Shown here: in pieces, positions 11,191 through 47,393 of the stretch
How the letters are laid out: each line of letters opens with the position of its first letter
Numbering within the stretch: the first letter of the stretch is position 1
From: Candidatus Moranbacteria bacterium RIFOXYB1_FULL_43_19
Lineage (GTDB): Bacteria; Patescibacteriota; Minisyncoccia; Moranbacterales; UBA11712
Direction of reading: 5' to 3'
Assembly: GCA_001784875.1 (NCBI GenBank)
Contig: MFSH01000008.1
Coordinates: 1,555-65,554 of the forward strand
Length of the DNA stretch: 64,000 nt
Notes under the pieces: generated by a model
What the model saw: the letters and a program-made list of their open reading frames with translations, nothing else
Told to the model about the DNA's origin: nothing
The model's database searches: none
Program-made: the position numbers and the translations under genes

Positions 11191-11198
11191 TTTATTTT

Positions 11199-13404: not shown

Positions 13405-13487
13405 ATTTGTAATTTGGATATTTTGAATACTCTCATATATGCATATGTGCATATATGAGAGTGTGCGCACTACGATATATCGTAGTG
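13381..13487. repeat. family D 3'-end element (GATGTAATTCGTAATTTGTGAATTTGTAATTTGG plus two perfect hairpins)
   Basis: The element overlaps the last codons and stop of the GT4 gene. The hairpins CTCTCATATATGCA/TGCATATATGAGAG and CACTACGATATATCGTAGTG follow. A paralogous copy lies at the uvrA 3' end. Confidence 0.5.
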
Positions 13488-13603
13488 AAAAAGTTAAAAG
13501 TTATTTGAAAACGAGGGAAATATATTTGGATAAAAAAACCGGACCGGTTCACAGATGAAAATTGTGAGCGGGCCCGGGGGGATTTTTTCAATATTTTGGT
13601 TAG

Positions 13604-13882
13604 CTACAACATAACCTCAATAATTTCTGTTTCAGGGGGCAGGAATTGAAGCTTACCCGTAGCCAAATCCAGTACTGCGATATTATTGTCCATCAGCTCC
13701 CTGGTTCTTTCTTCGCCCAAGTATAGAGCGAATTCATCGATCCGTTGACAGATCCTAAGTTTATTGCCATCTGGGTGGAATTGGCGAGCGTTAGATAAAA
13801 TTTGATGAACTTCACTCGCGACAATGAACCTGGATTTAGCTGGACAAAATCGGAGTTTTGCAAGGTGCTCTCCTTTTTTCAT
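13604..13882 (-). CDS. hypothetical small protein (92 aa)
   Basis: GGAGG lies 4 nt upstream of the ATG on the minus strand. No family was recognised. Confidence 0.3.
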   Translation of the reverse strand: MKKGEHLAKLRFCPAKSRFIVASEVHQILSNARQFHPDGNKLRICQRIDEFALYLGEERTRELMDNNIAVLDLATGKLQFLPPETEIIEVML

Positions 13883-13914
13883 GGCTCCTCCTAGAGTTCT
13901 ATTATTTTAATCAA

Positions 13915-29967: not shown

Positions 29968-30711
29968 ATGAAAAATTTATTTAAGAAAATAATTCAGCAT
30001 TATCTGAAATTATTTACCAAAATCATTCTTTGGCGGCACAAGCCGTTCATTGTAGCTGTGGCCGGAAGTACGAACAAGACCACGACCAAAGACTACATTC
30101 TCAAATTTCTGCGGGAAAAATACGGAGAAAAAGAGGTCCGGGGAAACCCGAAATCCTACAATACCGAAATCGGACTGCCTCTGGCGATCCTTTATCTTAA
30201 TTCCGGCGAATCCTCGGCGCTGCGCTGGCTGAAAATTCTTGTCCAGGCCAAAATACGGGCCCTGTTCGGACGAAAATTCCCTAAAAAACTGGTGCTTGAG
30301 TTTGGCGTGGAGGAAAAAGGGGATATGAAATATCTTCTTGAAATGGTTCGGCCGAACGTAGCTATCGTCACCAATATTGAAGGGAGCTATACCTACTCAA
30401 ATTCAGGCCTTGAAAAAATTTTTGAAGAAATGAAGATTATGGCGGAAAATATTCCCAAGGATGGATATATTCTTCTCAATGCTGATGACGAGCGGGTGAA
30501 TGGGCTTAAAAAACACACGAAAGCGAAAACGTTCACCTATGGATTTTCCGAGAATGCGGATGCCCGGGCGGAAAATTTGAAAACCGACGCCCAGGGCCAG
30601 ACATTCGGTTTTGTTTTTCAGGGCAAAAAAGAGTTTGTCCGGATAAAAAAATACGGCCGGACGAACATATATGCCTGGATGGCAGCAAAAGTGGTGAAAA
30701 ATATTTTGTGA
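29968..30711 (+). CDS. Mur-ligase-family protein with the central ATPase domain only; short and possibly truncated
   Basis: The P-loop reads VAVAGSTNKTTTKDYI, close to the Mur ligase GTNGKTT motif. At 247 aa it has no C-terminal domain. Confidence 0.5.
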   Translation: MKNLFKKIIQHYLKLFTKIILWRHKPFIVAVAGSTNKTTTKDYILKFLREKYGEKEVRGNPKSYNTEIGLPLAILYLNSGESSALRWLKILVQAKIRALFGRKFPKKLVLEFGVEEKGDMKYLLEMVRPNVAIVTNIEGSYTYSNSGLEKIFEEMKIMAENIPKDGYILLNADDERVNGLKKHTKAKTFTYGFSENADARAENLKTDAQGQTFGFVFQGKKEFVRIKKYGRTNIYAWMAAKVVKNIL

Positions 30712-31769: not shown

Positions 31770-33563
31770 TTATTCTATTTTGTATATTAAAATTGAGTAT
31801 CCAATCGTGGCATAAGGTTCCCGTTCCCGCAGCCACTCGTAGTCCGGTTTTCCTTCTGTGATTTTGTAGTAGAGTGAATTCTGGATGAAAGTCGCCGAAA
31901 TAGCATACCAGCCGGGTTCTTGTCCTGAATCGGCGTGCCAGATGACGGCTTTTGAACCGAGATAGTGGACAACATCTCCGCCGCCAAAATAGTCAACCCG
32001 GATTTTGTCGATGTTGTTTTCGTCCACGAAACTTTTGAGGCGCTTCAAATCCTGGCCCCAGTCAACATTGGAATCGGTTACGTATTTGTAGCCGTTTTTT
32101 GATCCGCCGATGGTTTCGTTGAAATAGGCGAGATAATAGGGATAGGCAAAGGCGGTTTCGGCGACTAGCCAGAGCAAAAGAACAGCCACAACCGCTGAAT
32201 AAATTTTCCTCGTTTTTCCCCGCAACCTCGCCCAAAGAAAAATAATTTCTTTGGAAATAAGAATATACATGAACGGCAGGATCGGAAAAAGGTGCCGAAA
32301 GCCAATATTGAGATTTCCGGTGATGCTCACATAGGCATAGAGGGCGACAAAAAGGAGCATGGCGGTTTCGGCGATGTGGCCATCCAGATAATTTTTGGCG
32401 TTTTTCCAAATATGCCGCGGAAAATCAGCCAAGTTGTTGCGCAGGATGAAATAGATAGAGATAGCGAGCGCGCTAAGAAGCAAGATAAGAATTGGCAAAG
32501 GCTCTTTGATGAGAAAGACAAGCGGAAAGTATTCGCGGAAACTCTGGTTTGTCACTTGGCCGAAGAAATAGGTCGTGTTCCCCCCGGCAACGCGCCCAAA
32601 GACCATGAAAAATCCGGTGAAGTATTGGGCCAGAGGCCTCAAGACGGGGCTGTCTGCCATTTTGTGAAGATAAGGCGCCGCGATGTTTTGCGTTCCGCCA
32701 TAAAGCTGCGTGTCAATAAGTTGGTGGACTTTTTCCGCCGGCATTTTATATATATTGGCTTCATACACAACCCAGATCATGGCAAAACAAACGATCACAA
32801 TGACTGCAAAGGTGGCGGCGTAGTGGCAAAATTTCTGGAGCCAGAACTTCTTGATCTTGCTGATGCCCCAAAAAGAATATTTCAGCTTGTCTTTTCGGAA
32901 AAATATGCAAATAAGAAGCGATAATCCAAAAATGGGGAAAAGAAGCACGGCCGAAAATTTGGCCAGCTGGGCGAGGCCCAAAAAAACTCCAGCCAGCGCT
33001 GTCATCTTCCAGCTTGGATCTTTGAGATATTTGACGAAAAAATAAAAGGCGAAAACAGAAAAAGCGGCAATTCCGAGATCGGTTGTCACATAGTGGTCGT
33101 GGCCCAAAATATTGGGGTCAAAGGCGTAAAGAACGAGTGCCAGAAGTCCCGCTTTGACGCCAAAAAGCTCCTTGGCCCATTTGAAAATGAAAAATCCTAA
33201 AAGAAGAGAAAGCAGGACAATCGGAAATCTCGACCAAAAAATTATTTTTTCCGTATCGTTTCCGGGCAGATACATAAAGCGCCAGCCAGCGTTCCATTGT
33301 CCGTTGGCGTCAGTTGCCCAGAACTGTTCATCGGTCGGAAAAGTGACGTTCAGGAATTGGAGCGGGATGCCGGCCAGGTCCTTGAGAATGGGGGGATGCT
33401 CCGGATTGAGGCGATAGTCGTGATATTTAATATATGAGTATCCCGACGGAATATGGGCTACTTCATCCATAATGGCCGCGTCGCCAAGCGCTGTGCCAAT
33501 AGAAATGGCAAGCATGATTGCCAAAATCGCAGCAACGATATACTTTTGGTATTTTTCGAGCAT
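31770..33563 (-). CDS. GT-C glycosyltransferase, PMT/GT39-like (dolichyl-phosphate-mannose-protein mannosyltransferase family)
   Basis: A polytopic membrane protein with the N-terminal-loop DE motif (AAIMDEVAHIPSGYSY). Confidence 0.7.
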   Translation of the reverse strand: MLEKYQKYIVAAILAIMLAISIGTALGDAAIMDEVAHIPSGYSYIKYHDYRLNPEHPPILKDLAGIPLQFLNVTFPTDEQFWATDANGQWNAGWRFMYLPGNDTEKIIFWSRFPIVLLSLLLGFFIFKWAKELFGVKAGLLALVLYAFDPNILGHDHYVTTDLGIAAFSVFAFYFFVKYLKDPSWKMTALAGVFLGLAQLAKFSAVLLFPIFGLSLLICIFFRKDKLKYSFWGISKIKKFWLQKFCHYAATFAVIVIVCFAMIWVVYEANIYKMPAEKVHQLIDTQLYGGTQNIAAPYLHKMADSPVLRPLAQYFTGFFMVFGRVAGGNTTYFFGQVTNQSFREYFPLVFLIKEPLPILILLLSALAISIYFILRNNLADFPRHIWKNAKNYLDGHIAETAMLLFVALYAYVSITGNLNIGFRHLFPILPFMYILISKEIIFLWARLRGKTRKIYSAVVAVLLLWLVAETAFAYPYYLAYFNETIGGSKNGYKYVTDSNVDWGQDLKRLKSFVDENNIDKIRVDYFGGGDVVHYLGSKAVIWHADSGQEPGWYAISATFIQNSLYYKITEGKPDYEWLREREPYATIGYSILIYKIE

Positions 33564-33656: not shown

Positions 33657-35495
33657 TTAATTTACGTTTATAACATAATAATCCGTCCCATTTCCGGGCT
33701 GGGGATCGAGCTTTTGGACATAGGCTCCCGGGAAAATTGATTTTGTTTTGGCGATGATTTCGCCGTCATAATACATAAGAACTATCTTGGCCGGCGCCTT
33801 GACGGTTTTCGGGTCGAAGTCGACGGGACGGAAATAGGCAATTTCCGGAGTCGGATAATGCGTTAGAACTTTTATCGCTTCGGCCGAGACAGGCAGGCCA
33901 TCGTCCATGATCTGGCCCCCGGCATTGGCAATGACGTATTTATTCACGTTGGGCGGAAGATTATTGAGATAAAGGGCCATATTTTTGAAATTTTGGGAAA
34001 AAGCGGCGTGAATGTCAGGGGCGCTGGCCCAGTCGATGAAATATGTTTTGATGGCGGCAAATCCAGACCAGGCAATGAGAATGATCAGCGCGGCGCGGCC
34101 GAGCTGGGCGGCAGGAAGCCGGAAATTTCTGGTTTTCATATGGTCGAGAAACCGGAAAATCATTTCCACGGCAAAAGCGGCAATGAGAATAGCAGCCGGG
34201 AGGGCTCCAATGGTCCGAAGAGCGTGGGGAAGGCCTTCGTAGGTGAGAAGTCCCGGCAGAAGCATGGCCACAAGCCAGGAAAGGAGAAGGACAGAGACCA
34301 CAAATTCCTGGCTTCTTTTCCTAAACCTGATTCTCTGATAAAGCCAATAGAAGAAATGGTAAATCAAAATGATTATCCCAATCAGGAAAAATATTCCCGT
34401 CCATGACTGAAGCTCTGGCTGGGAGGGAAAATTATGCCGCCAGTTCTGGTCACCTTTCACATTGAACATTCCAAAAGTCTTGCTGGTACTTTCCCAAAGA
34501 GCCGGCAGAAGATGGCCCTGGTTAACTTTTGGCGAAAGGACAGAAACAGATTCGGATCGGGTTTCAAAATATTCGGGATGCAGCCAAAAAGTGAGAAGCA
34601 TCGGAAGGGCGACAAAAAAAGCAGCTGAAAAGAAAGCCAGAATCGGCCTCCAGTGTTCGCGGAGGAACTTTTTCTTTGAAATGAGGAAAGCGATGAAAAG
34701 GGCAACGAGAATCGCCGGGGCGATCCGGAAGGCGATGTAACCGTGGATTCCAAGGCCGAAAAACACGCCGGCCAAAATATAATCATAGACCCCGCACCAA
34801 TTTTTTATATTAAAAAAAGATCCTAATTTTTCTCCCAAACTTTTTTGTCTTCGGGAAATTGATGCGGGGCAAGCTTTTTTCTCGCGCAGGCCCTTGAAAA
34901 GAAAATAAAAGGCAAAAACAAGGACGAACGGCAGCATGTTGGCGCGAAAAGAAATGCGGTTGAAATTGATGGCCCAAAAAGAAGTGGCGTATAGAAAACC
35001 GGCGACCAGTCCGGTCCGGTAGGTGCCGAAAAGCTCGCGGGCAAGAAGCATCATCCCGGCCACTGTCAATGCGCCGAAAAAGACCGACCACATTTTGAGA
35101 GTAATGATGCTGACGCCGAAGAATTTGAATCCCAAAGCAATGAGATTCATGAAAAGTCCCTCACGCCCATAGTTATTGGGATAGAACCACTGAAATTGGC
35201 CGGTTTCGAGAGCGTTGATGGCGTCGGTCCCATTGACAGCCTCATCCGGATAAACTCCGGGAGGCAACGTCGTGATATGATATGTCCTTGCCAGAATAGC
35301 AATCGCAAAAATCGAAGCCGCGACTGTCAAATAGAAAAATCGATGTTGGAGAAAAGAGTTATCTTTCCAAACAGCAGCTATTCTGTCCTTGAGGGCAGGT
35401 TTTTTTTGCTTTTTTGTTTTACTTTTCATTTCTGTTTTAGAAGTTATTCCGATGATCATATTATACATCAAAACCCCGAGGCTTGACAATATCAT
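33657..35495 (-). CDS. GT-C glycosyltransferase, ArnT/GT83-like
   Basis: A polytopic membrane protein with a DE motif (YPDEAVNGTDAINALETG). Confidence 0.7.
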   Translation of the reverse strand: MILSSLGVLMYNMIIGITSKTEMKSKTKKQKKPALKDRIAAVWKDNSFLQHRFFYLTVAASIFAIAILARTYHITTLPPGVYPDEAVNGTDAINALETGQFQWFYPNNYGREGLFMNLIALGFKFFGVSIITLKMWSVFFGALTVAGMMLLARELFGTYRTGLVAGFLYATSFWAINFNRISFRANMLPFVLVFAFYFLFKGLREKKACPASISRRQKSLGEKLGSFFNIKNWCGVYDYILAGVFFGLGIHGYIAFRIAPAILVALFIAFLISKKKFLREHWRPILAFFSAAFFVALPMLLTFWLHPEYFETRSESVSVLSPKVNQGHLLPALWESTSKTFGMFNVKGDQNWRHNFPSQPELQSWTGIFFLIGIIILIYHFFYWLYQRIRFRKRSQEFVVSVLLLSWLVAMLLPGLLTYEGLPHALRTIGALPAAILIAAFAVEMIFRFLDHMKTRNFRLPAAQLGRAALIILIAWSGFAAIKTYFIDWASAPDIHAAFSQNFKNMALYLNNLPPNVNKYVIANAGGQIMDDGLPVSAEAIKVLTHYPTPEIAYFRPVDFDPKTVKAPAKIVLMYYDGEIIAKTKSIFPGAYVQKLDPQPGNGTDYYVINVN

Positions 35496-35577: not shown

Positions 35578-36435
35578 ATGGTAAAAAAATTGTGGATTTT
35601 TCGGATTTTTTTCTTTTTTTCTTTGATATTTAGCACGAATGCCTTTGCCGCTGACCGGCAGGGCGTGTGGGAAGCTCTGCACTTTGATCGTCTGTATCAG
35701 GAGTATGTGCTTTGGCACCAATGGGCTGACAGCGGAAAAGTCAAGTTTGAGATCTCAAAGTATTCACTCATCGGTGACCAAGAAAAAGAAGAAGTTTTCT
35801 GTTCCGGAGAAATTGAAGCCAACTCCATTCTTATCGCCAAAGATTTTTTCAATGGCGATGATGGCATCGTTTTTGCCCGGAGAGAGGGGAGTTCTGGAAA
35901 TTTGAGTTATTCTTTCTTCTGTTTCTATCCATATGCCAGAAAACTGGAAAAAGTTTTCCCGGAACGGTTTCTGGAATGCGGCTCCCTCACGGTCGAAGGT
36001 GGACGCCTGATCGAATGGTCAAGCTTGAGGTCCACGGTCATAGAGCTCGAAGATGGAAAAGTTATTTTCAAAGATGAAATTGTGGGTAAAAATCTTCTTC
36101 TCTATGCCGGCGGATATGTCATTTCCTTCAATATGAGTGACGGAAAAATATCTGCTCGGCTGGGGGAAATTATCCGCCGCAAAAAAAAGGTAATCACAAT
36201 GGATCGAGGTGCCCTTGCCAACGGCTCGACCATAAATATACCAGTTGGCCAGGGCATAATACTGATCCGGACCGACAGGATCACGACCTGTGAAAAAATC
36301 AGGATTGAGGGAGAAGCGCTTAAGATAATCACGCCCAATGTTTCCATCGGCGACAAAAAAGGAGAGAGCCGAATTTCGATCGAGTATAATCATAGCCAGC
36401 CCCATTCTTTTGAACTGAAAGTCAGGGCGAATTGA
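35578..36435 (+). CDS. secreted hypothetical protein
   Basis: A signal peptide (FSLIFSTNAFA|AD) is present. No family was recognised. Confidence 0.45.
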   Translation: MVKKLWIFRIFFFFSLIFSTNAFAADRQGVWEALHFDRLYQEYVLWHQWADSGKVKFEISKYSLIGDQEKEEVFCSGEIEANSILIAKDFFNGDDGIVFARREGSSGNLSYSFFCFYPYARKLEKVFPERFLECGSLTVEGGRLIEWSSLRSTVIELEDGKVIFKDEIVGKNLLLYAGGYVISFNMSDGKISARLGEIIRRKKKVITMDRGALANGSTINIPVGQGIILIRTDRITTCEKIRIEGEALKIITPNVSIGDKKGESRISIEYNHSQPHSFELKVRAN

Positions 36436-36661: not shown

Positions 36662-39187
36662 TTGTGGTATAATTCTGGAAAAGAAAAGAAAATTTTTTCC
36701 ATGGTAAACAAAAAACCATCACAAACGGGCGGGAGAATTGAAGTTGGTACAATATCGCCAACTGGACCAGCTAGGCAAGTTGAAAATCCAGAAAAAAAAG
36801 AGCTCAAGTTGACCAAAGAAGAGGAAAGAAAAATCGCCCAAGACATCCAAATTCTTTCCGGAAAATACGATTTTGCCAAACTTTTGCGGCAAAAGGGTTT
36901 CGATGTGACAGATACAGACGGAGAAGAATTCAGAATATTTGTTTTGAACAATATGGGTGATCTTCAGGGCGCCCTGCTGTCATATTTGGAAGAAGAATAT
37001 GGGACGCAAAAATTGAAGCAAGAAATTCTTGGAAACGGAAACCTTGCAAGCGAATTTTTTGAAGCTGAAATGGAAAAACAGACGGGAGAATATTATTGCA
37101 AATTTTTGAACAGCCAGAATGAATTGAGTGAAAAACAAGGCCGGAATTTTGACCGGATGAACCTTGAGAAACACTCAGATGTTGTTTTGAAATCAGCGGC
37201 AGAAGTCCTGTCAGAAGCCGTGGACCAAAAAGAGCTGAAAGAAAAAATAGAAGCAGCTGTCGAGGAAAAAATTCAAAAAATTATGCAAGCCATGGACGGG
37301 CTGGATCAAGACGGGTTGCGAAAAAGTGGAGTGGATCCGGACGCTCTCGAAGCAGAAAAGAAATCTTTCTTAGAAAAGGAGAAACAGAAAATTATCGAAC
37401 ATTGTCTGGAAAGATTCCAAAAAGGTTCTGAAGCGGGACCACTGCCTCAAGATCCCGAACAAATTGTTTTTTGGACGAACTATTTCACGAACTCCGCTTT
37501 CAGCCATAAGGGTGACGAAAATCTCCGGAAGGCCTTCGGAAAAGCGTTTCCAAAAACTGTGGGCGGGACAGAAAAATCCGAAATGGACAACAGGGCGGAT
37601 CCCAATGCCACTCCCGAGAGGTTGATTGCCGAACACGGGCTATATAGCGCCAAAACGCCGAATTTGGATGAAATGCTGGGAAAAAGTCCTTCTAAAGAAG
37701 AAGCTTTGCAACGGCTCAAAGAAAATATGCGCAAGTTTTTGGATGATTTCACGACGCACGGGATGCTCGGTCCCCCCGATCCGGAAACAGGAGAGCGCCA
37801 AATTTTGCCGCGGTCTGATCTGGACGGACAGGCTTGCGTGCTGCTTCTCAAAAAAGCGGGCTTCAATTTGGACAAATTGAAATACGTGAAACAGGGCGAG
37901 GAGCCGGAATCGGGCTGGGCATTTGACATAACCAAGGAGCACGGCTATGTCCTGAAAGACGGAGGCCGGGTTCTCATCACCAACGATTCAAACAAAGAAT
38001 CCGGAAAAGACAGTTCGGCCAAGTTTATCTTCGAGGGGCTCAAAAATTTTGGCCTGCTTGACCAGATTGGAAAAGAGGAAATGAAGGCTCTTGAAAAATT
38101 TGTCGAATTTGTGACAAAAGAAGACAACAAAGACTACACCGACCACGAAGCGAAGCAAATCATTGACCATTATCCCAAAAATCTGGCGGGACTGCGCAGA
38201 TTCTTGACGGACGAGGACTTGCTTCGGGTTTTTGAAGAACAGGTAAAGGAAAAAAAATATTTCAACCCATATATGGCTTTGCCGGGCATATATCTGGAAA
38301 ATCTTTCCTATCGCGATCCGGCAACGGGCGAACCGATGAAATTCGAGCAGGTTTCGAAAAAACTCCATAATTCCAAAAAATATTCTTTGGAATCGATCAG
38401 CGATTCGGAGAGCAAGGGATTCTTCATTGACACGGGCGACGGGCGTTTTGGAAAAGTTTTGATTGACTCCGGAAGGCTCGACGCGCAGGGAGTCCGGAGA
38501 AGAAAAATCGGCTTGGGTTATGATGCAGCGAGAAGCGAGGGATTTGGAGCCTATGTGGTTTTTGACGAAGAAGGCAAATATTTTTCCGTCCAAACCGTGA
38601 AAGACATGGACTTTGAATTTGGTCAGGGAATGGAAGTTAGCAAGCGGTATTGGCTTTTCACAGGAGACAGGAAATTGGAGGTGAATCTGGAGGAAATACT
38701 CAAAAAATTGAGTGGCAATCCGGATTATCAGATGGAAGCCGGTCTCAAAGAAGCTCTGGAAAAAGAGAAAAAAGAAATTGAAGAAACAGAAAAAAGAGTG
38801 AATCTTCTCTTTGATGGGTTGAAAATCGGGGCGATTGAAGCAGGAATGCCCGAAGATATTTCCGCCCTTTCAGGCGAAGAAAAAAAGAAAGCCGAGGCGA
38901 AATTCAGGCTTCTGGAAGAAACAAAAACGCTTGCGCGGAAGATTGCGGGCGCTGTATCAGTGAAGGATGTCGAATATTTTTTGGCGAGCGTCTTGGGAGA
39001 GAAAAACTTTGAACAATATGCCAGTTTGAGGGACAAGGAAACAGATCCGGGAAAAAGAGAAAGATTTGGCAATGTAGTCAAAAAAGCATCGCGTGATTTT
39101 TTGGAAAAAAGAGGCTATAATAAGGATGAAGCAAAACAAGTTGTCAACTTATTTTTCAAAATAACGGATCTAAGGTTTACCAAATAA
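36662..39187 (+). CDS. large hypothetical protein (841 aa, highly charged, no TM)
   Basis: A clean ORF, first of a same-strand block that ends in a T4CP-like ATPase. Confidence 0.5.
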   Translation: MWYNSGKEKKIFSMVNKKPSQTGGRIEVGTISPTGPARQVENPEKKELKLTKEEERKIAQDIQILSGKYDFAKLLRQKGFDVTDTDGEEFRIFVLNNMGDLQGALLSYLEEEYGTQKLKQEILGNGNLASEFFEAEMEKQTGEYYCKFLNSQNELSEKQGRNFDRMNLEKHSDVVLKSAAEVLSEAVDQKELKEKIEAAVEEKIQKIMQAMDGLDQDGLRKSGVDPDALEAEKKSFLEKEKQKIIEHCLERFQKGSEAGPLPQDPEQIVFWTNYFTNSAFSHKGDENLRKAFGKAFPKTVGGTEKSEMDNRADPNATPERLIAEHGLYSAKTPNLDEMLGKSPSKEEALQRLKENMRKFLDDFTTHGMLGPPDPETGERQILPRSDLDGQACVLLLKKAGFNLDKLKYVKQGEEPESGWAFDITKEHGYVLKDGGRVLITNDSNKESGKDSSAKFIFEGLKNFGLLDQIGKEEMKALEKFVEFVTKEDNKDYTDHEAKQIIDHYPKNLAGLRRFLTDEDLLRVFEEQVKEKKYFNPYMALPGIYLENLSYRDPATGEPMKFEQVSKKLHNSKKYSLESISDSESKGFFIDTGDGRFGKVLIDSGRLDAQGVRRRKIGLGYDAARSEGFGAYVVFDEEGKYFSVQTVKDMDFEFGQGMEVSKRYWLFTGDRKLEVNLEEILKKLSGNPDYQMEAGLKEALEKEKKEIEETEKRVNLLFDGLKIGAIEAGMPEDISALSGEEKKKAEAKFRLLEETKTLARKIAGAVSVKDVEYFLASVLGEKNFEQYASLRDKETDPGKRERFGNVVKKASRDFLEKRGYNKDEAKQVVNLFFKITDLRFTK

Positions 39188-39199
39188 AAAATAAATTTT

Positions 39200-41389
39200 A
39201 TGGGGCTCAAATACAAAGTTTTAGAAACAGGGAAAGTAGCACCTCCTCGGCAGTCTCAATCTCCCGATCCGGATCCAAAATCCCAGGATCAATCACGGGA
39301 TATAAATGCGGAGCAGAGCGCAGAAATACCCACGGTCAATCTCGAAGTGTCTTCCGGGGAACCGGCAGGTGAGCCAGCGACACCTGCCACTCCCGAAGCC
39401 GATTCCGTTGCAGCGTCTGCTGATGTTCCTGAAACTCCTTCCAAAAAACCGGCAGGCGAGCCGGTTGCTCCTCCAGCTCCGGAATCCGAAACCGAAAGAA
39501 AAAACCGCGAGGACCTTAATAGAATACAGAAAGAATTTGATGAGAATGAAAAGAAAATAGCCGAAGCGAGGGCGAAAAATTTCAAAAGATGGAGAACAAT
39601 TGGCGAAGCATTGGGCTTGATTAAGAGGCCGGTTGATGAAGGCGATGATGTCAAGGAATATCTTGAGAGAAGAGGAGCTCTTTATAAGGCTTTGAGGGTA
39701 TCCGGAGTAAACGCGTTTAGAGGCAAAAACGAAGATCTTCAGAATTTTTTGACTGAATATGACAAAAGTATGATTGCTGTCAGAACCAGGACCTGGGAGA
39801 TGGATACCAGAGCGGGAAATGCAAAATGGTATGACAAGGCCTTTGTCAAATTCGCGAACGTCAGCAAAAATTATAGGGAGTTCATAGGCAAACAATTTCT
39901 CAATGAGAAAGGGAAGTTGAGCGCCAAAGGAATTTTCAAGGGAACAGCGATTGCAGCTTCAGTGTCCATAGCTATCGCGACGGCTTTGGGCGCAGCCTTG
40001 CCGGCCTTGGGGATTGCCGCTGTCGGCGCTGCTGGGACGACCGCTTGGGGCATGCGGATTTTTGGAGGCGTCGGAGCTGGCTATGCCGCCAAAAAGCGAA
40101 TGGAAGCTGGATTTTTCGAAAAGACCAAAAAAGATGTTGAGAGAAGAGTTTTGGATGCGGTTGAATCGATGAAAAATAAAACTGATGAACAATGGAAGGG
40201 TTATATTGAAGGTTTGGAAATGACTAGTGAGAAAAAATTAAAAGGCATATTAGAGGGAGAAGAGCACAAATTCGCAGATGTGGACGCCAAGCACAAAAGA
40301 TATGCTTTGGCCATCGGTTCGGGGACTGTAGTTGCCGGAGCTCTTGCAAGCCATTATATTATGCCTCATGCCAGAGGAATATTCGGTCAAACTTGGGAAA
40401 AAATAACAAATTCATTTGGTGACGGGAAAACCGGTTTCTATGAATCGTCGCACAGTCCGGTTTCTGATGCGGTTGTTCCGGAAAAGACAGGAGGGCCGTT
40501 TTTGGGCGATTCGCACAGGATCAAATCCGGTGAAAATGTCTGGAAAGTGACGAGGGAGATGTATATAGAGCACGCGAAGGAATATGATCTTAAGCCGGAT
40601 GATCCGAAAATCAAAAATCTGTTCCATTCACTCAAAAAACAGGGTTTCTTGGGCCGGATGGGGATTAATGCCGAAAATTTCAATGATTTGTCAGACGCCG
40701 AAAAAATAAAAATCCTCGCGGAAAACAAAACCGCCAATGCGATGGAATGGTATAAGTCCCATCACGGAGGAAAATTGCCGTCAGCGGTCAGAGAAGGCTG
40801 TACGGTTACTCTGGACGACAAAGGAAAATTGTTTGTAGAGGACATTTCGCAGATCAAGGCCGGAGCCGTTCATCACGAGCCAACTCATAGCGCTGGAAAG
40901 GCGGCTACGGCAGCGGAACATCATGGACGGGGCGGCAGAGGAGCAGTTGATACGAGCGAATTCGATCGGAGAATAGAAGATGCTCGGGAACGTGGAGCAG
41001 CGGCGGAAGCTTTTGGCAGGAGTGAAGTTGCGCGGCTCGGAGCGGAGGCTCAAGCCTTGAATGAACAGGCTGTTGCGGGCCTTACCAGCGCCAACGCGCG
41101 GCTTTGGAACAGCTGGCTTGAAAATCTGGGAGGTTTCAAGCTCAACACGCCGGCTTCTCAAATTCAAGAAGCTATCGGCCGTTTTAGTCCGGGAATCACA
41201 AGTGACATGCCGCTTGCGCCAACTGCCGAGGAAATGACTCAAAGGGCAAGTGCGGTCAATTTCACACAGGAAACTTTTCAAAAATTTCCGCCTCTCAATG
41301 CTCGGGAAACGATGCAGCAATATCTAGAACGGATGTCGCGAACCAGTTTCAACCTTTTCAAGGCCTTGAGCATAAAAAACAGACTTTAA
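39200..41389 (+). CDS. hypothetical membrane protein with a Pro/Glu-rich N-terminus and an Ala/Gly-rich TM hairpin
   Basis: The TM region reads GTAIAASVSIAIATALGAALPALGIAAVGAAGTTAWGMRIFGGVGAGYAA. It starts 12 nt after the upstream ORF. Confidence 0.5.
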   Translation: MGLKYKVLETGKVAPPRQSQSPDPDPKSQDQSRDINAEQSAEIPTVNLEVSSGEPAGEPATPATPEADSVAASADVPETPSKKPAGEPVAPPAPESETERKNREDLNRIQKEFDENEKKIAEARAKNFKRWRTIGEALGLIKRPVDEGDDVKEYLERRGALYKALRVSGVNAFRGKNEDLQNFLTEYDKSMIAVRTRTWEMDTRAGNAKWYDKAFVKFANVSKNYREFIGKQFLNEKGKLSAKGIFKGTAIAASVSIAIATALGAALPALGIAAVGAAGTTAWGMRIFGGVGAGYAAKKRMEAGFFEKTKKDVERRVLDAVESMKNKTDEQWKGYIEGLEMTSEKKLKGILEGEEHKFADVDAKHKRYALAIGSGTVVAGALASHYIMPHARGIFGQTWEKITNSFGDGKTGFYESSHSPVSDAVVPEKTGGPFLGDSHRIKSGENVWKVTREMYIEHAKEYDLKPDDPKIKNLFHSLKKQGFLGRMGINAENFNDLSDAEKIKILAENKTANAMEWYKSHHGGKLPSAVREGCTVTLDDKGKLFVEDISQIKAGAVHHEPTHSAGKAATAAEHHGRGGRGAVDTSEFDRRIEDARERGAAAEAFGRSEVARLGAEAQALNEQAVAGLTSANARLWNSWLENLGGFKLNTPASQIQEAIGRFSPGITSDMPLAPTAEEMTQRASAVNFTQETFQKFPPLNARETMQQYLERMSRTSFNLFKALSIKNRL

Positions 41390-41407
41390 TATTTAGAAAA
41401 CAAAACA

Positions 41408-41746
41408 ATGACAACAAAAAACACAATCATGCAGGAAACAATCGTTGAAGAATTGGGACTCACGGATTTGCCTGAAGAGCAAAAATCCAAAGTTCTGGTG
41501 AATCTCCTGGAGTTGGTTTTGAAGCGCCTTTATATGGAGACAATGGACAAACTGTCGCCGGAAGACCAAAAGGAACTGATGAAAATAATTGATGAAAAAG
41601 GGGAACCGGACAGAATTGAAAAATTCCTTCGCGAGAAAATTAGCGATTATGACGAATTTGTGAAAAAAGTGGTGAGCGACCTGAAAGACGAGCTGAAAGA
41701 AGACATCGCCGGCTTTGGAAATGCGGAGGAAGCGACAAAGAGCTGA
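41408..41746 (+). CDS. hypothetical small acidic protein
   Basis: A clean ORF that starts 18 nt after the upstream ORF. Confidence 0.4.
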   Translation: MTTKNTIMQETIVEELGLTDLPEEQKSKVLVNLLELVLKRLYMETMDKLSPEDQKELMKIIDEKGEPDRIEKFLREKISDYDEFVKKVVSDLKDELKEDIAGFGNAEEATKS

Positions 41747-41949
41747 AAGTTGATATGGAAATAGCGACGCTTTTGGCGTAATTTCTAATTTCTGATACCC
41801 AATTTCCAATAAAATGTCCAATATTAAAAATTAAAATTTTTGTAATTGGGCATTTAGATTTTTATTAGAAATTAGATGTTAAATATTGGAATTTTGACGG
41901 GAAGTTTATTTACGGTGATATTGCATAAATAAATATTTACGGATCTTTT

Positions 41950-42474
41950 ATGGCACAACAATTATATCAGGAGCCTATCGAAAAGGAGGATTTGGATTTG
42001 GCGAAAAAGTTAAAAAGTGATATTCCAGCCGCGGGCGCAGGAAAAGTACCAGAAAATGTGGAAACGAAAAAAACGGAAATTACTGAAATTCCGGAAGTAC
42101 CGGTGCCGGAGGCTGAAAAAGCCACGGGAGTTGAATCTGAAATGGGAGGAGAAAAAAAGGCCGAGGAAGTTTCCGAAAAAATTGAAACCGTCCGGAAATC
42201 GATCCAAACCCAAAAACCGACGGCCGGGGCGAGCGTGGCTTCGGACGCGGGAACAGTTTCGCAAATCACAGAATATGAAAAAAAAGTGGAAAAACTGGTC
42301 GAAATGGCGCTCCAAAAAGGCCCGGAGCACGCGATCAAAGTCGCGCGGCACATGGACAAAGGAAAGTCTCCCAGCCAGGCGGATAACTATACCCTCGATG
42401 AAATCCACGACCGTCTTTTGGAAGAGAGTCTTCGAAAACAACTTATTCAGAAAGGACTATTAAAAGAATTATAA
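41950..42474 (+). CDS. hypothetical acidic protein
   Basis: A clean ORF flanked by AT-rich spacers. Confidence 0.4.
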   Translation: MAQQLYQEPIEKEDLDLAKKLKSDIPAAGAGKVPENVETKKTEITEIPEVPVPEAEKATGVESEMGGEKKAEEVSEKIETVRKSIQTQKPTAGASVASDAGTVSQITEYEKKVEKLVEMALQKGPEHAIKVARHMDKGKSPSQADNYTLDEIHDRLLEESLRKQLIQKGLLKEL

Positions 42475-42621
42475 ATTTTTAATTTAGAATTTCGAAATAA
42501 TTTCAAATGATATAATTTTGAAACATTAAAGCATTGGAACATTATTTCAAAATTAAAAATTGGAAATTCAAAATTGTATATCAGAATATTCTTCTTAAAA
42601 TAAAAACAAAAACATATTTAG

Positions 42622-45156
42622 ATGGATGTATATAATTTGAACTTGATAATGTATCCCCTTGCTTTTCTTTTGGCCGCGCTAAGCTTTGGTTCGGCGTTTT
42701 TGATGATTTTCAAAAGCTTTGTTTCTTTTCGCGCTGAAATCACCCGGTCGCTTAATATGGATATTGACATTGTCAAAGTTTCGCGGTCACTCAAAGCCCA
42801 GAATCCGCAGGCGCAGCAGCAGCAGCCGAAAAATGACAAAGAGCTTATTTCCGTAACGGAACATCTTTTCGCGAGCCTCGGGAATATCAAGGAAAAAACC
42901 GGAATTTTCCATCGGCTGATCTATGGCGATGCGGTTATATCCCTTGAAATCGCCAATCCGGCGAGCGGAGATGAGATTTGTTTTTTTGTCGGGGCGCCAA
43001 AAAAATTTATCAATATAGTCGAACGCCAGATTCATAGCTTTTATCCCAAAGCAGCCATCGAAAGGGTAAAAGATTACAATATTTTCAATCCGGGAAGCTT
43101 CACGGCGGCATCGTACCTCAAGCTCAGTCAAAAAAATCATTTTCCGATCCGCACCTATCTGTCTTTGGAGTCCGATCCGCTCAACAATATCACCAATGTC
43201 CTTGGAAAATTTGATGAAAAAAAAGAAGGAGCGGCGATCCAGCTTCTGATAAAACCAGCTCGTGGCGATTGGAGGACCAAAGGGCGGGAAGTAGCTCATA
43301 AAATGCAGCAGGGGAGGCAACTTTCGGACGTGAAAAAAGACAGTTTTTTTCGAGAACTGTTTCGAGGATTCTTCAAAATAGCCGTGAAAAAAGATGACAG
43401 TCAGAAAAAAGATATTCTGAAAAGTGATAAAGATCCGGTGCAGCTGACACCTGAAGAACAGGAAATCATAAAAAAAATCGAGGGAAAGTCGAACAAGCCC
43501 GGATTTTTGGTCAACATCCGCCTCGTGGCTTCGGCCCTCACCCAGGAACGTTCCGAGCAGGTGCTGGCCGAACTTGAAAACGCTTTCATTCAATACGAAA
43601 ATCCCGGGCTGAACCGATTTCGGGTGTTGAGGGAAGACAAAATACGCAAAAAAAACATCGCTTTCGATTTCATTTTCCGGAATTTCAAAGACGACCAGGG
43701 AATGATTCTTTCCTCCGAAGAAGTGGCCAGCATATTCCATTTCCCTCTTTCTTCGACAGAAACGCCGAAAATTTCCTGGCTCAAGTCCCGCACGGCCTCT
43801 CCGCCTTCGAATATTTCCAAGGAAGGAATCAAAATTGGCTACAATGACTATCGCGGAGTGGAAACGGTCATCCGGCACAACGCTGACGATCGTCGCCGCC
43901 ATTTCTATATCATTGGTCAAACCGGAACCGGAAAATCGACCATGATCCAGGAAATAGTGAAGCAGGACATCAAAAACGGTGAGGGGGTCTGCGTGATCGA
44001 TCCGCACGGCGATCTGGTTGACCACATCATTGAATCCATTCCCAAAGAGCGGGCGGAGGACGTCATTTATTTTGACCCGGCCGATATAGAGAGGCCATTC
44101 GGGCTCAATATGCTTGAATTCGACCATGCCAAACCGGAGCAAAAGACTTTTGTTATTAATGAGATGATCAACATTTTTGACAAGCTCTATGACCTCCGCC
44201 AGACAGGTGGGCCGATGTTCGAGCAGTATATGCGCAATGCCGCTCTTCTTGTCATGGAACACTCCGAATCCGGCGCAACACTAATGGAAATTCCGCGCGT
44301 TCTCGCCGACGAAGAATTCCGTCATATGAAACTTTCCCATTGCACAAACCCGGTCGTCAAGAATTTCTGGGAAAAAGAAGCTGAAAAAGCGGGGGGCGAA
44401 GCGGCGCTGGCCAACATGGTTCCCTATATCACTTCAAAACTCACCCAGTTCATTTCGAACGACATGATGCGCCCGATCATCGCCCAGGAAAAAAGCACCA
44501 TCAATTTTCGGCGGGCAATGGATGACCGGCGGATAGTTCTTGTCAATCTTTCCAAAGGAAAAATCGGAGAAATAAACGCCAACCTTTTGGGTATGATTAT
44601 TGTCGGAAAAATTTTGATCGCGGCTCTTTCACGGGTGGACACGCACGAAGAAGGGCGCAAAGATTTCTATCTCTATATCGACGAATTCCAAAATTTCACG
44701 ACCGATTCAATCGCCCAGATTCTTTCCGAAGCCCGCAAATACCGCTTATCACTTATCATAGCCCACCAGTTCATTGCCCAGCTCAAGGAGGAAATTTCGA
44801 AGGCTGTTTTCGGAAACGTTGGTTCAATCTGCTCATTTCGCATCGGGGCCGAAGATGCCGAGTTTGTCCAGAAGCAGTTCGAGCCGGTTTTTGACGCCAA
44901 CGACCTCATGAATGTTGATAACCGGAATTGCTTCATGAAACTTTTGATCGCGAGCCAGGTGGCGCCGCCGTTCAATATGAAAACTTATCCACCGACTGTC
45001 GGCAATCCGAAGATTGCCGAAGCCATCAAAGAGCTTTCCAAGTTGAAATATGGCAGGAACCGTGATATAGTGAATGAGGAGATCATGAAAAAGGCGGCAT
45101 TTGTCGCCGCTGCTCCGACGGCCGACGCGTTTGATATGGGAGAAAAGCCTTTGTGA
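42622..45156 (+). CDS. type IV secretion coupling protein-like ATPase (VirD4/TraG/TraD family) with an N-terminal TM segment and a ~390 aa unrecognised domain
   Basis: The Walker A motif reads RHFYIIGQTGTGKST. A T4CP-type VCVIDPHGD (DPKGE-like) motif follows. The Walker B motif is FYLYIDEFQNF and the C-terminal ARKYRLSLIIAHQFIAQL block is present. Confidence 0.7.
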   Translation: MDVYNLNLIMYPLAFLLAALSFGSAFLMIFKSFVSFRAEITRSLNMDIDIVKVSRSLKAQNPQAQQQQPKNDKELISVTEHLFASLGNIKEKTGIFHRLIYGDAVISLEIANPASGDEICFFVGAPKKFINIVERQIHSFYPKAAIERVKDYNIFNPGSFTAASYLKLSQKNHFPIRTYLSLESDPLNNITNVLGKFDEKKEGAAIQLLIKPARGDWRTKGREVAHKMQQGRQLSDVKKDSFFRELFRGFFKIAVKKDDSQKKDILKSDKDPVQLTPEEQEIIKKIEGKSNKPGFLVNIRLVASALTQERSEQVLAELENAFIQYENPGLNRFRVLREDKIRKKNIAFDFIFRNFKDDQGMILSSEEVASIFHFPLSSTETPKISWLKSRTASPPSNISKEGIKIGYNDYRGVETVIRHNADDRRRHFYIIGQTGTGKSTMIQEIVKQDIKNGEGVCVIDPHGDLVDHIIESIPKERAEDVIYFDPADIERPFGLNMLEFDHAKPEQKTFVINEMINIFDKLYDLRQTGGPMFEQYMRNAALLVMEHSESGATLMEIPRVLADEEFRHMKLSHCTNPVVKNFWEKEAEKAGGEAALANMVPYITSKLTQFISNDMMRPIIAQEKSTINFRRAMDDRRIVLVNLSKGKIGEINANLLGMIIVGKILIAALSRVDTHEEGRKDFYLYIDEFQNFTTDSIAQILSEARKYRLSLIIAHQFIAQLKEEISKAVFGNVGSICSFRIGAEDAEFVQKQFEPVFDANDLMNVDNRNCFMKLLIASQVAPPFNMKTYPPTVGNPKIAEAIKELSKLKYGRNRDIVNEEIMKKAAFVAAAPTADAFDMGEKPL

Positions 45157-45283
45157 ATAAAAAAGTAAAAATGAATAAGTAAAAGTTTCGGTACTCGCTT
45201 CGCTCGTTTTTTTTATAAATTAATATCGCGAAGCGAATCCTTAGCCTTTAGTTTTTCGCTTTTAATTTTTAATTTATATCGTT

Positions 45284-45421
45284 ATGACCGACGAAACTAC
45301 AACTCCGATGACGGATGCTCCGGCAACGGATGCTCCGGCTGCTCCGGAAGCTCCGATGGCTTCTCCAGTGGAACCGACTCCGGAAATGCCTCCAGCGGAA
45401 GAAGCTCCGAAAGCCGAGTAA
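45284..45421 (+). CDS. candidate 45 aa Pro/Ala/acidic peptide (MTDETTTPMTDAPATDAPAAPEAPMASPVEPTPEMPPAEEAPKAE)
   Basis: An ATG-to-TAA ORF that is too short for the ORF track. It lies just downstream of the T4CP-like gene and just upstream of a terminator, and it has no obvious SD. Confidence 0.25.
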   Translation: MTDETTTPMTDAPATDAPAAPEAPMASPVEPTPEMPPAEEAPKAE

Positions 45422-45450
45422 TTATTTTTCAAAAATTACTCATCAAAAAA

Positions 45451-45476
45451 GCCAGTCGAGAACGACAGGCTTTTTT
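45451..45476 (+). terminator. intrinsic terminator closing the T4CP-like block
   Basis: The hairpin GCCAGTCG-agaa-CGACAGGC has one mismatch and is followed by TTTTTT. Confidence 0.45.
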
Positions 45477-45537
45477 GTTTGGAAAAGAAAACCGCTTGGC
45501 GAATGCCCAAGCGGTCGGTTCTGCAGTTATTTTGCCC

Positions 45538-46167
45538 TTAGAAAAGGTCTCTTTGCCGGGCCGGATCCGACAAGCTTCTCAAATTTGGATCGTTGGTTGG
45601 AATCATATAATCGACACAGAGGTAGTATTTCAATACGTTGGCAGCGGCTTCTCTCATTTTTATGCCCGAAAATTTATAATCTTTCAGGACTGAATATACA
45701 GCGTCCCGAATTATGGCCGCGTCAACTTTTGCCTTTTTTCTTCCTTTACCCCTTTTTTCAAGGACGATACTTCTTGCCTTGTCCAACTGTTCTCGGGTCC
45801 TTTCGTTTTCCGGCTGTCCGAAAGAATCTTTCAGCTCTTTTGCCCGCTTCCGACGGAAGTGCTCTTCCGGCGGGATGGATATTGTATTTTCAATACGTCT
45901 GGCCAAACTTCCCCAGAAACGGTCCTGTTCCTCCTTGGAGCTTATTCCCGTGATTCCAAAAACAATTCCGATAACTTCTTTCTTGCGTTCTTGAAATTCG
46001 GGGTGTTCGACACCGACCTCCTTGTTTCTCAGGATGCGCACGGCTATTTTCACCATTTCGTTGAGAAGTGAAACCTCCTCGTCGGTGAAAATCCTCTCTT
46101 TTTTCTTTCCCATTTGCGGGTCTCCTCCTTTTTTCCGGAACGGGTTTTCAATATCTCCCTTGCTCAT
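45538..46167 (-). CDS. hypothetical protein, in an operon with the DUF763 gene (ATGA overlap)
   Basis: A clean ORF whose start overlaps the stop of the upstream minus-strand gene by 4 nt. Confidence 0.45.
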   Translation of the reverse strand: MSKGDIENPFRKKGGDPQMGKKKERIFTDEEVSLLNEMVKIAVRILRNKEVGVEHPEFQERKKEVIGIVFGITGISSKEEQDRFWGSLARRIENTISIPPEEHFRRKRAKELKDSFGQPENERTREQLDKARSIVLEKRGKGRKKAKVDAAIIRDAVYSVLKDYKFSGIKMREAAANVLKYYLCVDYMIPTNDPNLRSLSDPARQRDLF

Positions 46168-47393
46168 ATTATGCGATTCATTATCTTATTTCTTTCAGAA
46201 TATCCGATTTTCATTTTCTCGACAAGTTTTTGCATGGTTTGGATTGTTTGGTCATAAGTCGGCCGGTCGACGGGGTAGGGGATGAAATCCTTTCCTCCAT
46301 GGGCGAAAGAATAGCGGGCCGGGTCTTCATACGAGGCTTTCGCGCCATAAATCACTTCGGCTGTGAGAGCCAACGCTCGAATGGTCTTTGGGCCGACGCC
46401 TTTCAAGGATAAAAGCTGTTCGTAACTTTTTGGTTTTATTTCGGAAACTTCATATAAAATCTTTTCGAGATATTTACTTTTTGAAAAATCTTCAAATATC
46501 ACAGGGTGGGTTTTGAAATCGAGATTGGTTAAATTAACTTTCGTCAGCACCTGGTGTTTGTTGCCAACAGACATTACTTCACTTTGGGGCGTGGAATATT
46601 TTCGCAGCAGTTTGAGATCTTTCATCAAAGTATTATAACTCCCTTGCACGAGTTCTGTGCTGATTTTTTGCGCATTCTCGCTTTCTTTGGCGGTCATATT
46701 TAGTCCGGTATTTTTTCCATCCGAAATTATACCAGCATGTGGTTCAATAACCATGTTATTAGTAGAGTCCGAAAACCAGTGATATCTCCGCGCTGTGACC
46801 TCTCTTTCGTTCATGCCTTGCTGGACGACTGCCCAGGCGCCGTTCTCGCCCCCACACCAATCTCCGGAATTATTGGATTTATTTTTTTCGTTTTTTATCT
46901 TTTTCTTCCATGAGGATTGGTATGGGGGTACCGAAAAGAAAAAACAGTGATGATAGATTTGAAATCCGTCTTGAATGAGTGAGGAATCAACTTTGGCGGC
47001 CATGCGGGAATTATACTCGAGCGAATTTATTTTCTCTTGCGAGAGTTCGGCTCGCGCGCCAAAAAGAGAAATTTGTTCCGGAGTCTTGAGGGAAGTTTTT
47101 CCTTTCCCGCCGCAAATATATATTCCCAAGTCCTTTTCTTCGCCCCGAATGGCTTCTTTGAGAGCAGCGGTCAAAATCGTCGTCAGTCCCGACGCGTTCC
47201 AGTCAAAAGCGAGAACCGTTCCGAGCGCTTGAAACCAGACCGGATCGGAAATCCTTTTCACAAATTCATCCGGTCCGTATTCGGCGACAATGACCCGCGC
47301 CATCTCTCGTCCCAGCTTCACCATCCGCTCAAAGAGCCATTTCGGACACTTGCCGTAATCAAGGGTAAATGTAGCAATTCCACGCTTAAACAT
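46164..47393 (-). CDS. DUF763-family protein (helix-hairpin-helix containing)
   Basis: The HhH block reads LSLKGVGPKTIRALALTAEVIYGAKASYEDPARYSFAHGGKDFIPYPVDRPTYD. A low-complexity insert is also present. Confidence 0.6.
   Translation of the reverse strand: MFKRGIATFTLDYGKCPKWLFERMVKLGREMARVIVAEYGPDEFVKRISDPVWFQALGTVLAFDWNASGLTTILTAALKEAIRGEEKDLGIYICGGKGKTSLKTPEQISLFGARAELSQEKINSLEYNSRMAAKVDSSLIQDGFQIYHHCFFFSVPPYQSSWKKKIKNEKNKSNNSGDWCGGENGAWAVVQQGMNEREVTARRYHWFSDSTNNMVIEPHAGIISDGKNTGLNMTAKESENAQKISTELVQGSYNTLMKDLKLLRKYSTPQSEVMSVGNKHQVLTKVNLTNLDFKTHPVIFEDFSKSKYLEKILYEVSEIKPKSYEQLLSLKGVGPKTIRALALTAEVIYGAKASYEDPARYSFAHGGKDFIPYPVDRPTYDQTIQTMQKLVEKMKIGYSERNKIMNRII

Follow-up and report, generated by a model that had tools for sequence, protein, structure and literature searches.

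A conserved Moranbacteria operon encoding a coupling-protein-type ATPase and lineage-specific partner proteins

We analysed a block of genes on contig MFSH01000008.1 of Candidatus Moranbacteria bacterium RIFOXYB1_FULL_43_19, within a stretch of 64,000 nucleotides (positions 1,555 to 65,554 of the contig) which is called the window below and whose coordinates are used throughout. The block contains a large ATPase resembling type IV coupling proteins (T4CPs). A preliminary description had reported six consecutive + strand open reading frames (ORFs) separated by gaps of 12 to 18 nt or by AT-rich spacers, and all six were found. The block is composed as follows.

36701..39187, + strand: variable giant cytoplasmic protein, 828 aa, charged, without transmembrane segment (ATG start; the TTG at 36662 gives 841 aa)
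39200..41389, + strand: fast-evolving membrane protein, 729 aa
41408..41746, + strand: small acidic protein, 112 aa, isoelectric point (pI) 4.6, Pfam family DUF5663
41950..42474, + strand: small acidic protein, 174 aa, pI 5.2
42622..45156, + strand: coupling-protein-type ATPase, 844 aa
45284..45421, + strand: candidate gene for a 45 aa acidic peptide rich in Pro, Ala, Glu and Thr
45447..45475, + strand: terminator-like hairpin followed by a T-run, ending the + strand block (from the sequence and a terminator scan)

The gaps measure 12 nt (39188-39199) and 18 nt (41390-41407), and the spacers 203, 147 and 127 nt, with GC contents of 0.26, 0.16 and 0.27, compared to 0.443 for the whole window. 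A promoter and terminator scan gave counts no higher than those of shuffled controls, so that no internal promoters are claimed.

The ATPase is the best defined member of the block. The motifs named in the preliminary description can all be read in its translation: Walker A (RHFYIIGQTGTGKST, residues 426-440), VIDPHGD (residues 458-464), Walker B YIDEFQNF (residues 685-692) and the RKY-hQ block, with RKYRLSLIIAHQ at residues 705-716. In an alignment of 31 homologues most motif positions are invariant and nearly all others at least 90% conserved, for a mean column identity of 72%. The N-terminal transmembrane (TM) segment was likewise recovered, as a single hydrophobic segment at residues 5-36 which forms a long helix (6-45) in the AlphaFold2 (AF2) model. 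Judging from the flanking charges, the N-terminus would lie outside and the domains in the cytoplasm. What had been presented as a 390 aa unrecognised domain is in fact Pfam DUF8128 (PF26449), about 350 aa long (aa ∼40-400, window 42739-43821), an assignment taken from the precomputed annotation of an identical protein, P0001. It is followed by the P-loop domain (aa ∼403-800), in which a predicted helical insertion occupies about aa 500-635. In the AF2 model this insertion appears as a run of helices (506-634) between strands 481-484 and 638-642, with a predicted local distance difference test score (pLDDT) of only 55-75; VirB4 and HerA also carry helical insertions. Mean pLDDT of the model is 62.8, residues 70-380 of the N-domain reaching 70-90 and the ATPase domain only 40-70.

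Three Pfam T4CP families scored above their gathering cutoffs: TrwB_AAD_bind (40.4 bits, cutoff 20.5), T4SS-DNA_transf (25.4 bits, cutoff 20.1, residues 422-724) and TraG-D_C (24.1 bits, cutoff 22). In a profile search against the PDB, the only significant sequence matches were TrwB (8.5e-7) and DotL (1.3e-4). These results, together with the collinearity with relaxase-linked ATPases described below, bear out the T4CP-like character first proposed. The curated T4CP types of NCBIfam (TraD, SXT TraD and the CD1115 VirD4-like type) gave at best 24-47 bits, for cutoffs of 250-648, and mostly over the P-loop only. Since these scores are far below the cutoffs, we consider the ATPase to represent a separate subfamily, belonging to none of the curated T4CP types.

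Other ATPase families were also considered. DUF87, the HerA central domain, passes its gathering threshold (E=9e-10), while the NCBIfam HerA models score 15-21 bits for cutoffs of 800-970, the NCBIfam VirB4 equivalogs remain far under their cutoffs, and Pfam FtsK_SpoIIIE gives no match at E<0.01. Neither the family-specific domains nor the family models of HerA and FtsK/SpoIIIE identified the protein. A terminase or packaging ATPase was rejected, PHROG 2666 matching residues 415-464 (the P-loop) alone, and so was an anti-phage defence system, PADLOC matching only part of the ATPase domain and none of the partner proteins. No confident HerA, FtsK or terminase assignment was thus obtained; such an assignment would, by the preliminary description, have spoken against its own proposal.

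Relatives with an informative context were found on plasmids and phages. A search with the ATPase domain returned 338 plasmid records. The 812 aa homologue of Embleya sp. NBC_00896 plasmid unnamed2 is collinear over its full length (BLASTP, 26% identity, E=1e-75), a collinearity that includes the N-domain, whose hidden Markov model matches the Embleya T4CP at 1e-8. On this plasmid the gene order is PrgI-family protein, VirB4-like ATPase, T4CP, replication-relaxation protein, NlpC/P60. A 913 aa homologue on Bacillus subtilis plasmid NRS6116_2, also collinear (BLASTP, 24% identity, E=2e-39), is followed by genes for a replication-relaxation protein, TcpD, TcpE and a VirB4-like protein. In phage SPO1, gp27.4 aligns with ATPase residues 34-826 (BLASTP, 22% identity, E=5e-22) and precedes the relaxase-like gp27.3. 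The latter has been related to the MobC relaxase of CloDF13, and the gene pair has been assigned to a "DNA translocation operon" in which the coupling ATPase gene is non-essential in the laboratory (PMC3357382). PHROG 5156 covers residues 76-826 of the ATPase (positions 50-809 of an 824-position profile, E=1.3e-87). Full-length collinear similarity to plasmid and phage proteins, together with PHROG 5156, therefore places the ATPase in a distinct T4CP subfamily whose mobile-element members lie beside relaxases. On sequence grounds, it is a member of a DUF8128-type T4CP subfamily shared by plasmids, phages and the candidate phyla radiation (CPR). DUF8128 itself has 1,778 representatives at 50% clustering, the full-length ones being mostly 800-860 aa long with the domain at the N-terminus. 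On haloarchaeal plasmids (hits H44-H53), a "hypothetical protein" annotated on its own corresponds to the DUF8128-like part; in the two records checked (NZ_CP135526.1 and NZ_CP100446.1) it lies ∼300-550 nt upstream of the ATPase-domain match, which points to the same architecture in split form.

Database relatives of the ATPase number more than 7,000, the nearest in Moranbacteria and Parcubacteria; the two large partner proteins have far fewer. The first, given as 841 aa in the preliminary description, has 9 relatives, all of Moranbacteria type. The + strand ORF does exist from TTG 36662, the start used there, but this codon is overlapped by an extended -10-like box (TGGTATAAT, 36665-36673), and ATG 36701, which agrees with public gene model P0121, is most likely the true start, giving 828 aa. 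We nevertheless keep the name "841 aa family". This family has no Pfam, PDB, PHROG or PADLOC match. Its distant members show a DLDG...DTG...DHH...RDTSA series with spacings reminiscent of DHH phosphoesterases (alignment A4); in the protein of the window, as in its three nearest homologues, NDS replaces DHH. A DHH phosphoesterase assignment was rejected for this family: there was no Pfam match in 10 members and no PDB profile match, and hhalign against E. coli RecJ gave a probability of 0.2%.

The 729 aa protein has 13 database relatives, and matches a protein of Candidatus Moranbacteria RIFOXYD1_FULL_44_12 at 100% identity. Its N-terminus is Pro/Glu-rich and disordered; it also comprises helical regions, the Ala/Gly-rich hydrophobic hairpin noticed in the preliminary description (aa 245-295), what is probably a third TM helix (∼aa 372-392) and, at the C-terminal end, a part of ∼330 aa. 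The NCBI gene model P0130 gives it only 592 aa; as the helix ERKNREEF...DENEKKI (residues 99-124), shared by homologues of 716-770 aa, lies upstream of the P0130 start, we consider that start to be too late. The AF2 model has a mean pLDDT of 55, and Foldseek against the PDB returned nothing under E=0.049, only generic long-helix proteins. A LysM-like wall-binding domain, suspected from HRIKSGENVWKVTREMY, was discarded in the absence of Pfam support in 12 members and of any PDB match at E<0.02.

The two small proteins are acidic, as first described. The 112 aa protein belongs to DUF5663 (PF18908, E=1.1e-5, 26.3 bits for a cutoff of 23.7). In the 174 aa protein the N-terminal half is disordered, and a conserved C-terminal block, KGVxHAVKVAxH...DNYxLDxxHD, is helical. 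With the exception of DUF5663 in Pfam, none of the four partners has a match in NCBIfam, PHROGs, PADLOC, the PDB or Pfam. Calling the proteins of the block "orphans" was too strong for two of them, the ATPase, with its DUF8128 N-domain, and the 112 aa protein, a member of DUF5663.

The block was then compared with 84 related loci (designated by L numbers), corresponding to ∼80 species-level genomes with ATPase identities of 55-82%; the family counts given are lower bounds. The common order starts with FtsQ and one or two oppositely oriented PMT_2 genes, followed by the variable giant or giants, the 729 aa-type protein, DUF5663, an acidic protein of ∼145 aa (174 aa family) and the ATPase. At least 70 of the 84 loci have a member of the 174 aa family, directly upstream of the ATPase, and at least 56 have DUF5663, which stands at the same position in these 56 loci; at least 62 ORFs of the 729 aa family and at least 10 of the 841 aa type were counted. 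L001 and L065 carry a fusion of the 841 aa and 729 aa types. The arrangement is kept in more distant Parcubacteria (L091), while L092 retains only a homologue of the 174 aa protein (E=1e-18) and the ATPase. Synteny of FtsQ, PMT and the module is common to the ∼80 species-level loci and to these two distant ones.

For a reverse test, the KGVxHAVKVA motif typical of the 174 aa family was turned into a degenerate DNA pattern, which retrieved 120 metagenome stretches. A family member was present in 117 of them and DUF5663 in 85; the ATPase lay immediately downstream in 80 of the 84 contigs having at least 900 nt of downstream sequence. The proteins evolve at very different paces: in comparisons with the closest relatives, the ATPase is ∼80% identical, the 174 aa protein 50-58%, DUF5663 44-55% and the 729 aa protein 24-30%; the 841 aa protein was found in only one of these five relatives, with 41% identity over half its length. 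Judging by these values, the putative motor is strongly constrained and the giant proteins diverge very fast.

We conclude that the operon is vertically inherited and chromosomal in Moraniibacteriota and related Parcubacteria, at a fixed site. Its partner proteins are specific to the lineage and keep the same order, in keeping with the novelty first ascribed to them; examined for the possibility that they were ordinary housekeeping proteins, they were not. Many loci with a Moranbacteria-type operon (L005, L009, L011-L014 and others) are labelled Bdellovibrionales, Bathyarchaeia, Micavibrio or Fimivivens, and these labels are probably mislabels of CPR bins. In L067, a second pair of 729 aa-type and DUF5663 genes (12650-14539 and the following ORF) lies downstream of the ATPase.

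The limits of the module could also be drawn from this comparison. In the four closest species (L005-L008) the candidate 45 aa peptide ORF is found at the same position, begins with MTD[DE] and stays open over 44-51 aa; no counterpart was found in loci beyond these. The stretch 45412-45491, which includes the terminator-like hairpin, shows 84-90% nucleotide identity in the same four species and is better kept than the neighbouring small peptide ORF; a - strand terminator hairpin faces it at 45516-45490. Of the peptide gene and terminator suggested in the preliminary description, the hairpin stands, and the ORF does so within these four species only; the gene is lineage-restricted and its membership in the module uncertain. 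In two of them (L005 5753-5923 and L006 12556-12729) an extra ORF of 56-57 aa with a CxxC...CCHC zinc-ribbon-like pattern, absent from the window, is placed between the ATPase and the Pro/Ala-rich peptide ORF. A signal-peptide protein just upstream (35578-36435), earlier mentioned as a neighbour of the block, has no counterpart in any related locus and was dropped as a module part; so was a 78 aa ORF without homologue in any of them.

The preliminary description had seen no VirB4, relaxase or pilin, and indeed no VirB4, VirB6, relaxase or pilin was found in the 64 kb window, nor any relaxase, VirB4 or channel gene within 10 kb in the 84 related loci. Plasmid and phage queries for relaxase, PrgI and Tcp homologues detected none in the window or these loci beyond two marginal matches, and a VirB4-like query matched, weakly, solely the ATPase orthologues themselves. 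A hidden relaxase nearby was rejected, as three plasmid or phage relaxase queries yielded one marginal match only (E=0.003), at 19561-20649 of L067. In three loci, an ORF resembling T4SS_pilin (PF18895, E=1.8e-5, just under the gathering score) directly follows the ATPase, at a distance of 21-43 nt. These ORFs encode 135-137 aa with a signal peptide and two hydrophobic helices:

L001, 12527-12940: pilin-like ORF
L023, 5468-5875: pilin-like ORF
L026, 12481-12894: pilin-like ORF

As they occur in just 3 of ∼80 loci and not in the window, a general pilin link was not retained. The suggestion that the block forms a minimal type IV secretion system (T4SS) or an episymbiosis-related apparatus received no support, no channel, VirB4 or pilus component being present.

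The surroundings are those of an ordinary chromosome, with housekeeping genes on both sides and a GC content that is even across the block and in line with that of the flanks. Upstream are ThrRS, RodA/FtsW, MurA, two MreB, MreC, PBP2, GreA, LysRS and SerRS and, nearer to the block, a Mur ligase, FtsQ and two PMT_2 glycosyltransferases; downstream are DUF763, UvrB, thioredoxin, UvrA and UvrC. An Rfam scan of the window detected two tRNAs and nothing else. A complete rod-shape set (two MreB paralogues, MreC, PBP2, RodA/FtsW) is thereby encoded in a CPR genome. The Mur ligase ORF (29968-30711, 247 aa) is matched over the middle domain only and may be truncated, frameshifted or split. The PMT_2 pair beside FtsQ keeps its synteny with the ATPase operon throughout Moraniibacteriota, as well as in L091 and L092. 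On the other side, a 209 aa ORF without family match (45538-46167) overlaps by 4 nt the end of the gene for a DUF763 protein with a helix-hairpin-helix motif (46164-47393, - strand), which is divergent and adjoins uvrB. The coordinates of the grouped genes are the following.

11178-12206, 19824-20876, 20971-21774, 22360-24261 and 4090-5184: rod-shape genes
31770-33563, 33657-35495 and 59950-61542, - strand: three PMT_2-type glycosyltransferases

A T4CP lying far from its usual companions is a situation already reported. In the part of the study of Quinonero-Coronel et al. 2025 (PMC12102498) considered here, 5,713 VirD4-type T4CP homologues are counted in 2,918 of 3,035 Patescibacteria genomes (96%), only 148 of them near virB4; VirB4 is present in 2,417 genomes (80%) and relaxases are rare. 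In Southlakia epibionticum the T4CP homologue is dispensable and the T4SS essential, and the authors do not exclude that the T4CP has been exapted (PMC12102498). The essential T4SS cluster of Saccharibacteria has been described without recognisable coupling protein or relaxase (Wang et al. 2023). The block is no isolated oddity, being one case of the orphan T4CPs reported in PMC12102498. Both the superfamily of the ATPase and the phenomenon that it represents are known; no description was found of the operon or its partners.

How the system may work can be approached from these data. Because of the housekeeping surroundings, the shared synteny, the GC content similar to that of the flanks and the lack of relaxase, VirB4, PrgI and Tcp genes, we regard the ATPase as domesticated: as far as its sequence tells, it is a T4CP with no relaxase or T4SS gene nearby, whose catalytic motifs are intact under strong purifying selection. 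Partnership with the upstream proteins is indicated by the gaps of 12-18 nt, the conserved gene order, the linkage in 80 of 84 contigs and the fusion in L001 and L065. We favour, tentatively and at somewhat less than even chances, a domesticated coupling motor with adaptor-like partners that hands its substrate over to a T4SS encoded elsewhere. The ATPase would be held in the membrane by its one N-terminal helix, with DUF8128 and the ATPase domain in the cytoplasm. As a coupling protein it might form a hexameric ring, hydrolyse ATP under stimulation by DNA or its substrate and transfer that substrate; by analogy with its relatives, it would be a ring-shaped NTP-driven motor which recognises the substrate and delivers it to a membrane conduit or drives it through one. 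Two of the partners, DUF5663 and the 174 aa family, both small, acidic and helical, could be adaptors or chaperones docking on the motor, as IcmS, IcmW and LvgA do on DotL, and TrwA and TraM on TrwB and TraD. Encoded just upstream, the fast-evolving giant protein or proteins would be either the motor's membrane platform or its cargo. The most likely route would be hand-over to the Patescibacteria T4SS, whose VirB4 cluster lies elsewhere in most such genomes, for the export of proteins rather than of relaxase-bound DNA. The link to a T4SS is supported by the presence of VirB4 and T4CP in 80% and 96% of Patescibacteria genomes, usually far apart, in the counts considered here (PMC12102498), and by the pilin-like ORFs of L001, L023 and L026.

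Several points weigh against hand-over to a T4SS. The window holds no T4SS component, and the pilin-like neighbour, found in three lineages, scores below cutoff. In the reported counts T4CPs are commoner than VirB4, and the Southlakia homologue is dispensable (PMC12102498), both of which argue against an obligate partnership with the T4SS. The adaptor role given to the small proteins is only an analogy, DUF5663 apart they match no known family, and the TM segments predicted in the 729 aa protein would be unusual for secreted cargo.

A second explanation, possible and less probable, is a translocase that is independent of any T4SS: the ATPase ring, with the 729 aa-type protein as conduit or platform, would move nucleic acid much as Streptomyces TraB or FtsK/SpoIIIE do, whether for DNA export, import or segregation. 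The excess of T4CP-bearing over VirB4-bearing genomes, the small number of T4CPs near virB4, the exaptation allowed for by the authors and the dispensability in Southlakia, all taken from the same part of PMC12102498, speak in its favour. So do the mobile-element homologues, which are DNA-transfer proteins paired with relaxases, the membrane protein always encoded in the same operon, the proximity of the division and cell-wall genes for FtsQ, Mur ligase and PBP2, and the DHH-like motif series in distant members of the 841 aa family, DHH proteins being phosphoesterases or nucleases. However, no DNA-binding, relaxase or nuclease domain is statistically detectable, the DHH likeness having failed and the window protein showing NDS; for the 729 aa protein no more than 2-3 TM segments are predicted, and a channel fold is not recognisable; FtsK_SpoIIIE is unmatched; and closeness to division genes may reflect conserved synteny only.

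It is unlikely, although worth considering, that the block encodes a self-contained, CPR-specific membrane translocation machine working without a VirB4-type T4SS. The exapted ATPase, docked by two dedicated acidic adaptors to a giant, rapidly diversifying membrane protein (which would have a DHH-like phosphoesterase module in most lineages), would then move or process nucleic acid, or deliver the giant protein to the host-facing surface. If true, this would amount to a novel type of apparatus for secretion or uptake, linked to life as an episymbiont.

An assignment of the ATPase to the HerA/FtsK clade, as an enzyme of DNA repair or anti-phage defence whose T4CP signals would reflect superfamily resemblance, is improbable. 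The DUF87 match, a PADLOC match to mad8 (1.4e-16), several HerA models at 5e-9 or weaker and the uvrB, uvrA and uvrC genes downstream are consistent with it. But the HerA and defence matches are limited to the P-loop or part of the ATPase domain, with NCBIfam HerA far below cutoff, no NurA, Sir2, methylase or nuclease partner was found in the Pfam and PADLOC scans, and the full-length architecture fits the relaxase-linked coupling ATPases instead; moreover, the uvr genes are set apart from the block by convergent genes and the terminator, and a fixed position over the whole lineage is untypical of defence islands. Finally, the block might be in decay, the remains of an integrated conjugative element or a phage "DNA translocation operon" devoid of cellular role. 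This would accord with closest relatives of assignable context being on plasmids and phages and with the dispensability of the phage version in the laboratory (PMC3357382), but is close to refuted by the same chromosomal position and order in ∼80 species-level genomes with only 55-60% ATPase identity, by the conserved catalytic residues, and by the lack of integrase, relaxase, repeats or compositional shift at the locus.

Nearly all Patescibacteria genomes carry T4CPs away from T4SS and relaxase genes (PMC12102498), and the present locus makes such ATPases a defined object. One T4CP subfamily, the DUF8128 type, is traced to the relaxase-linked ATPases of monoderm plasmids and phages and found at one chromosomal site. 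Its partner set, made of DUF5663, another small acidic protein in tight linkage and a membrane giant that diverges fast, provides concrete candidates for experiments, and if the giants are cargo or a surface platform, the module bears on how ultrasmall bacteria interact with their hosts.

Compared to known systems, the closest architecture is that of the DUF8128-type plasmid ATPases of Embleya and B. subtilis, alike in the collinearity of N-domain and P-loop and in size (812-913 aa). Their genes lie among those for relaxase, VirB4-like protein, PrgI, TcpD, TcpE and a cell-wall hydrolase, whereas none of these occurs within 10 kb of the Moranbacteria gene, which has instead four lineage-specific upstream partners and a fixed chromosomal site. 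SPO1 gp27.4 and orf201 of phage 0305phi8-36 belong to the same PHROG 5156; the phage gene is paired with the MobC-like relaxase gp27.3, and the Moranbacteria gene is not. In addition, orf201 is reported without TM helix (PMC3357382), while the Moranbacteria ATPase has one. Classical T4CPs (TrwB of R388, VirD4, TraD, DotL, Cagbeta) have two TM helices, and, unlike them, the Moranbacteria ATPase has the extra cytoplasmic DUF8128 (∼350 aa) and no nearby relaxase or T4SS linkage. In the Dot/Icm system, the T4CP DotL exports proteins, not DNA, and relies on the small acidic adaptors IcmS, IcmW and LvgA encoded with it. DUF5663 and the 174 aa family are likened to these by analogy only. No mention of DUF8128 or DUF5663 was met in the literature searched, nor any published account of the operon, its partner families, the link of DUF8128 to relaxase-associated ATPases or the fixed synteny. 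The orphan T4CPs of Patescibacteria (PMC12102498) agree with the window ATPase in taxonomic group, annotation and situation, far from virB4 and without relaxase; the part of that study considered here gives their counts and distance to virB4, and not DUF8128, operon, partner families or synteny. The window ATPase can be taken as an instance of the published phenomenon, and it is very probably among the 5,713 homologues counted there.

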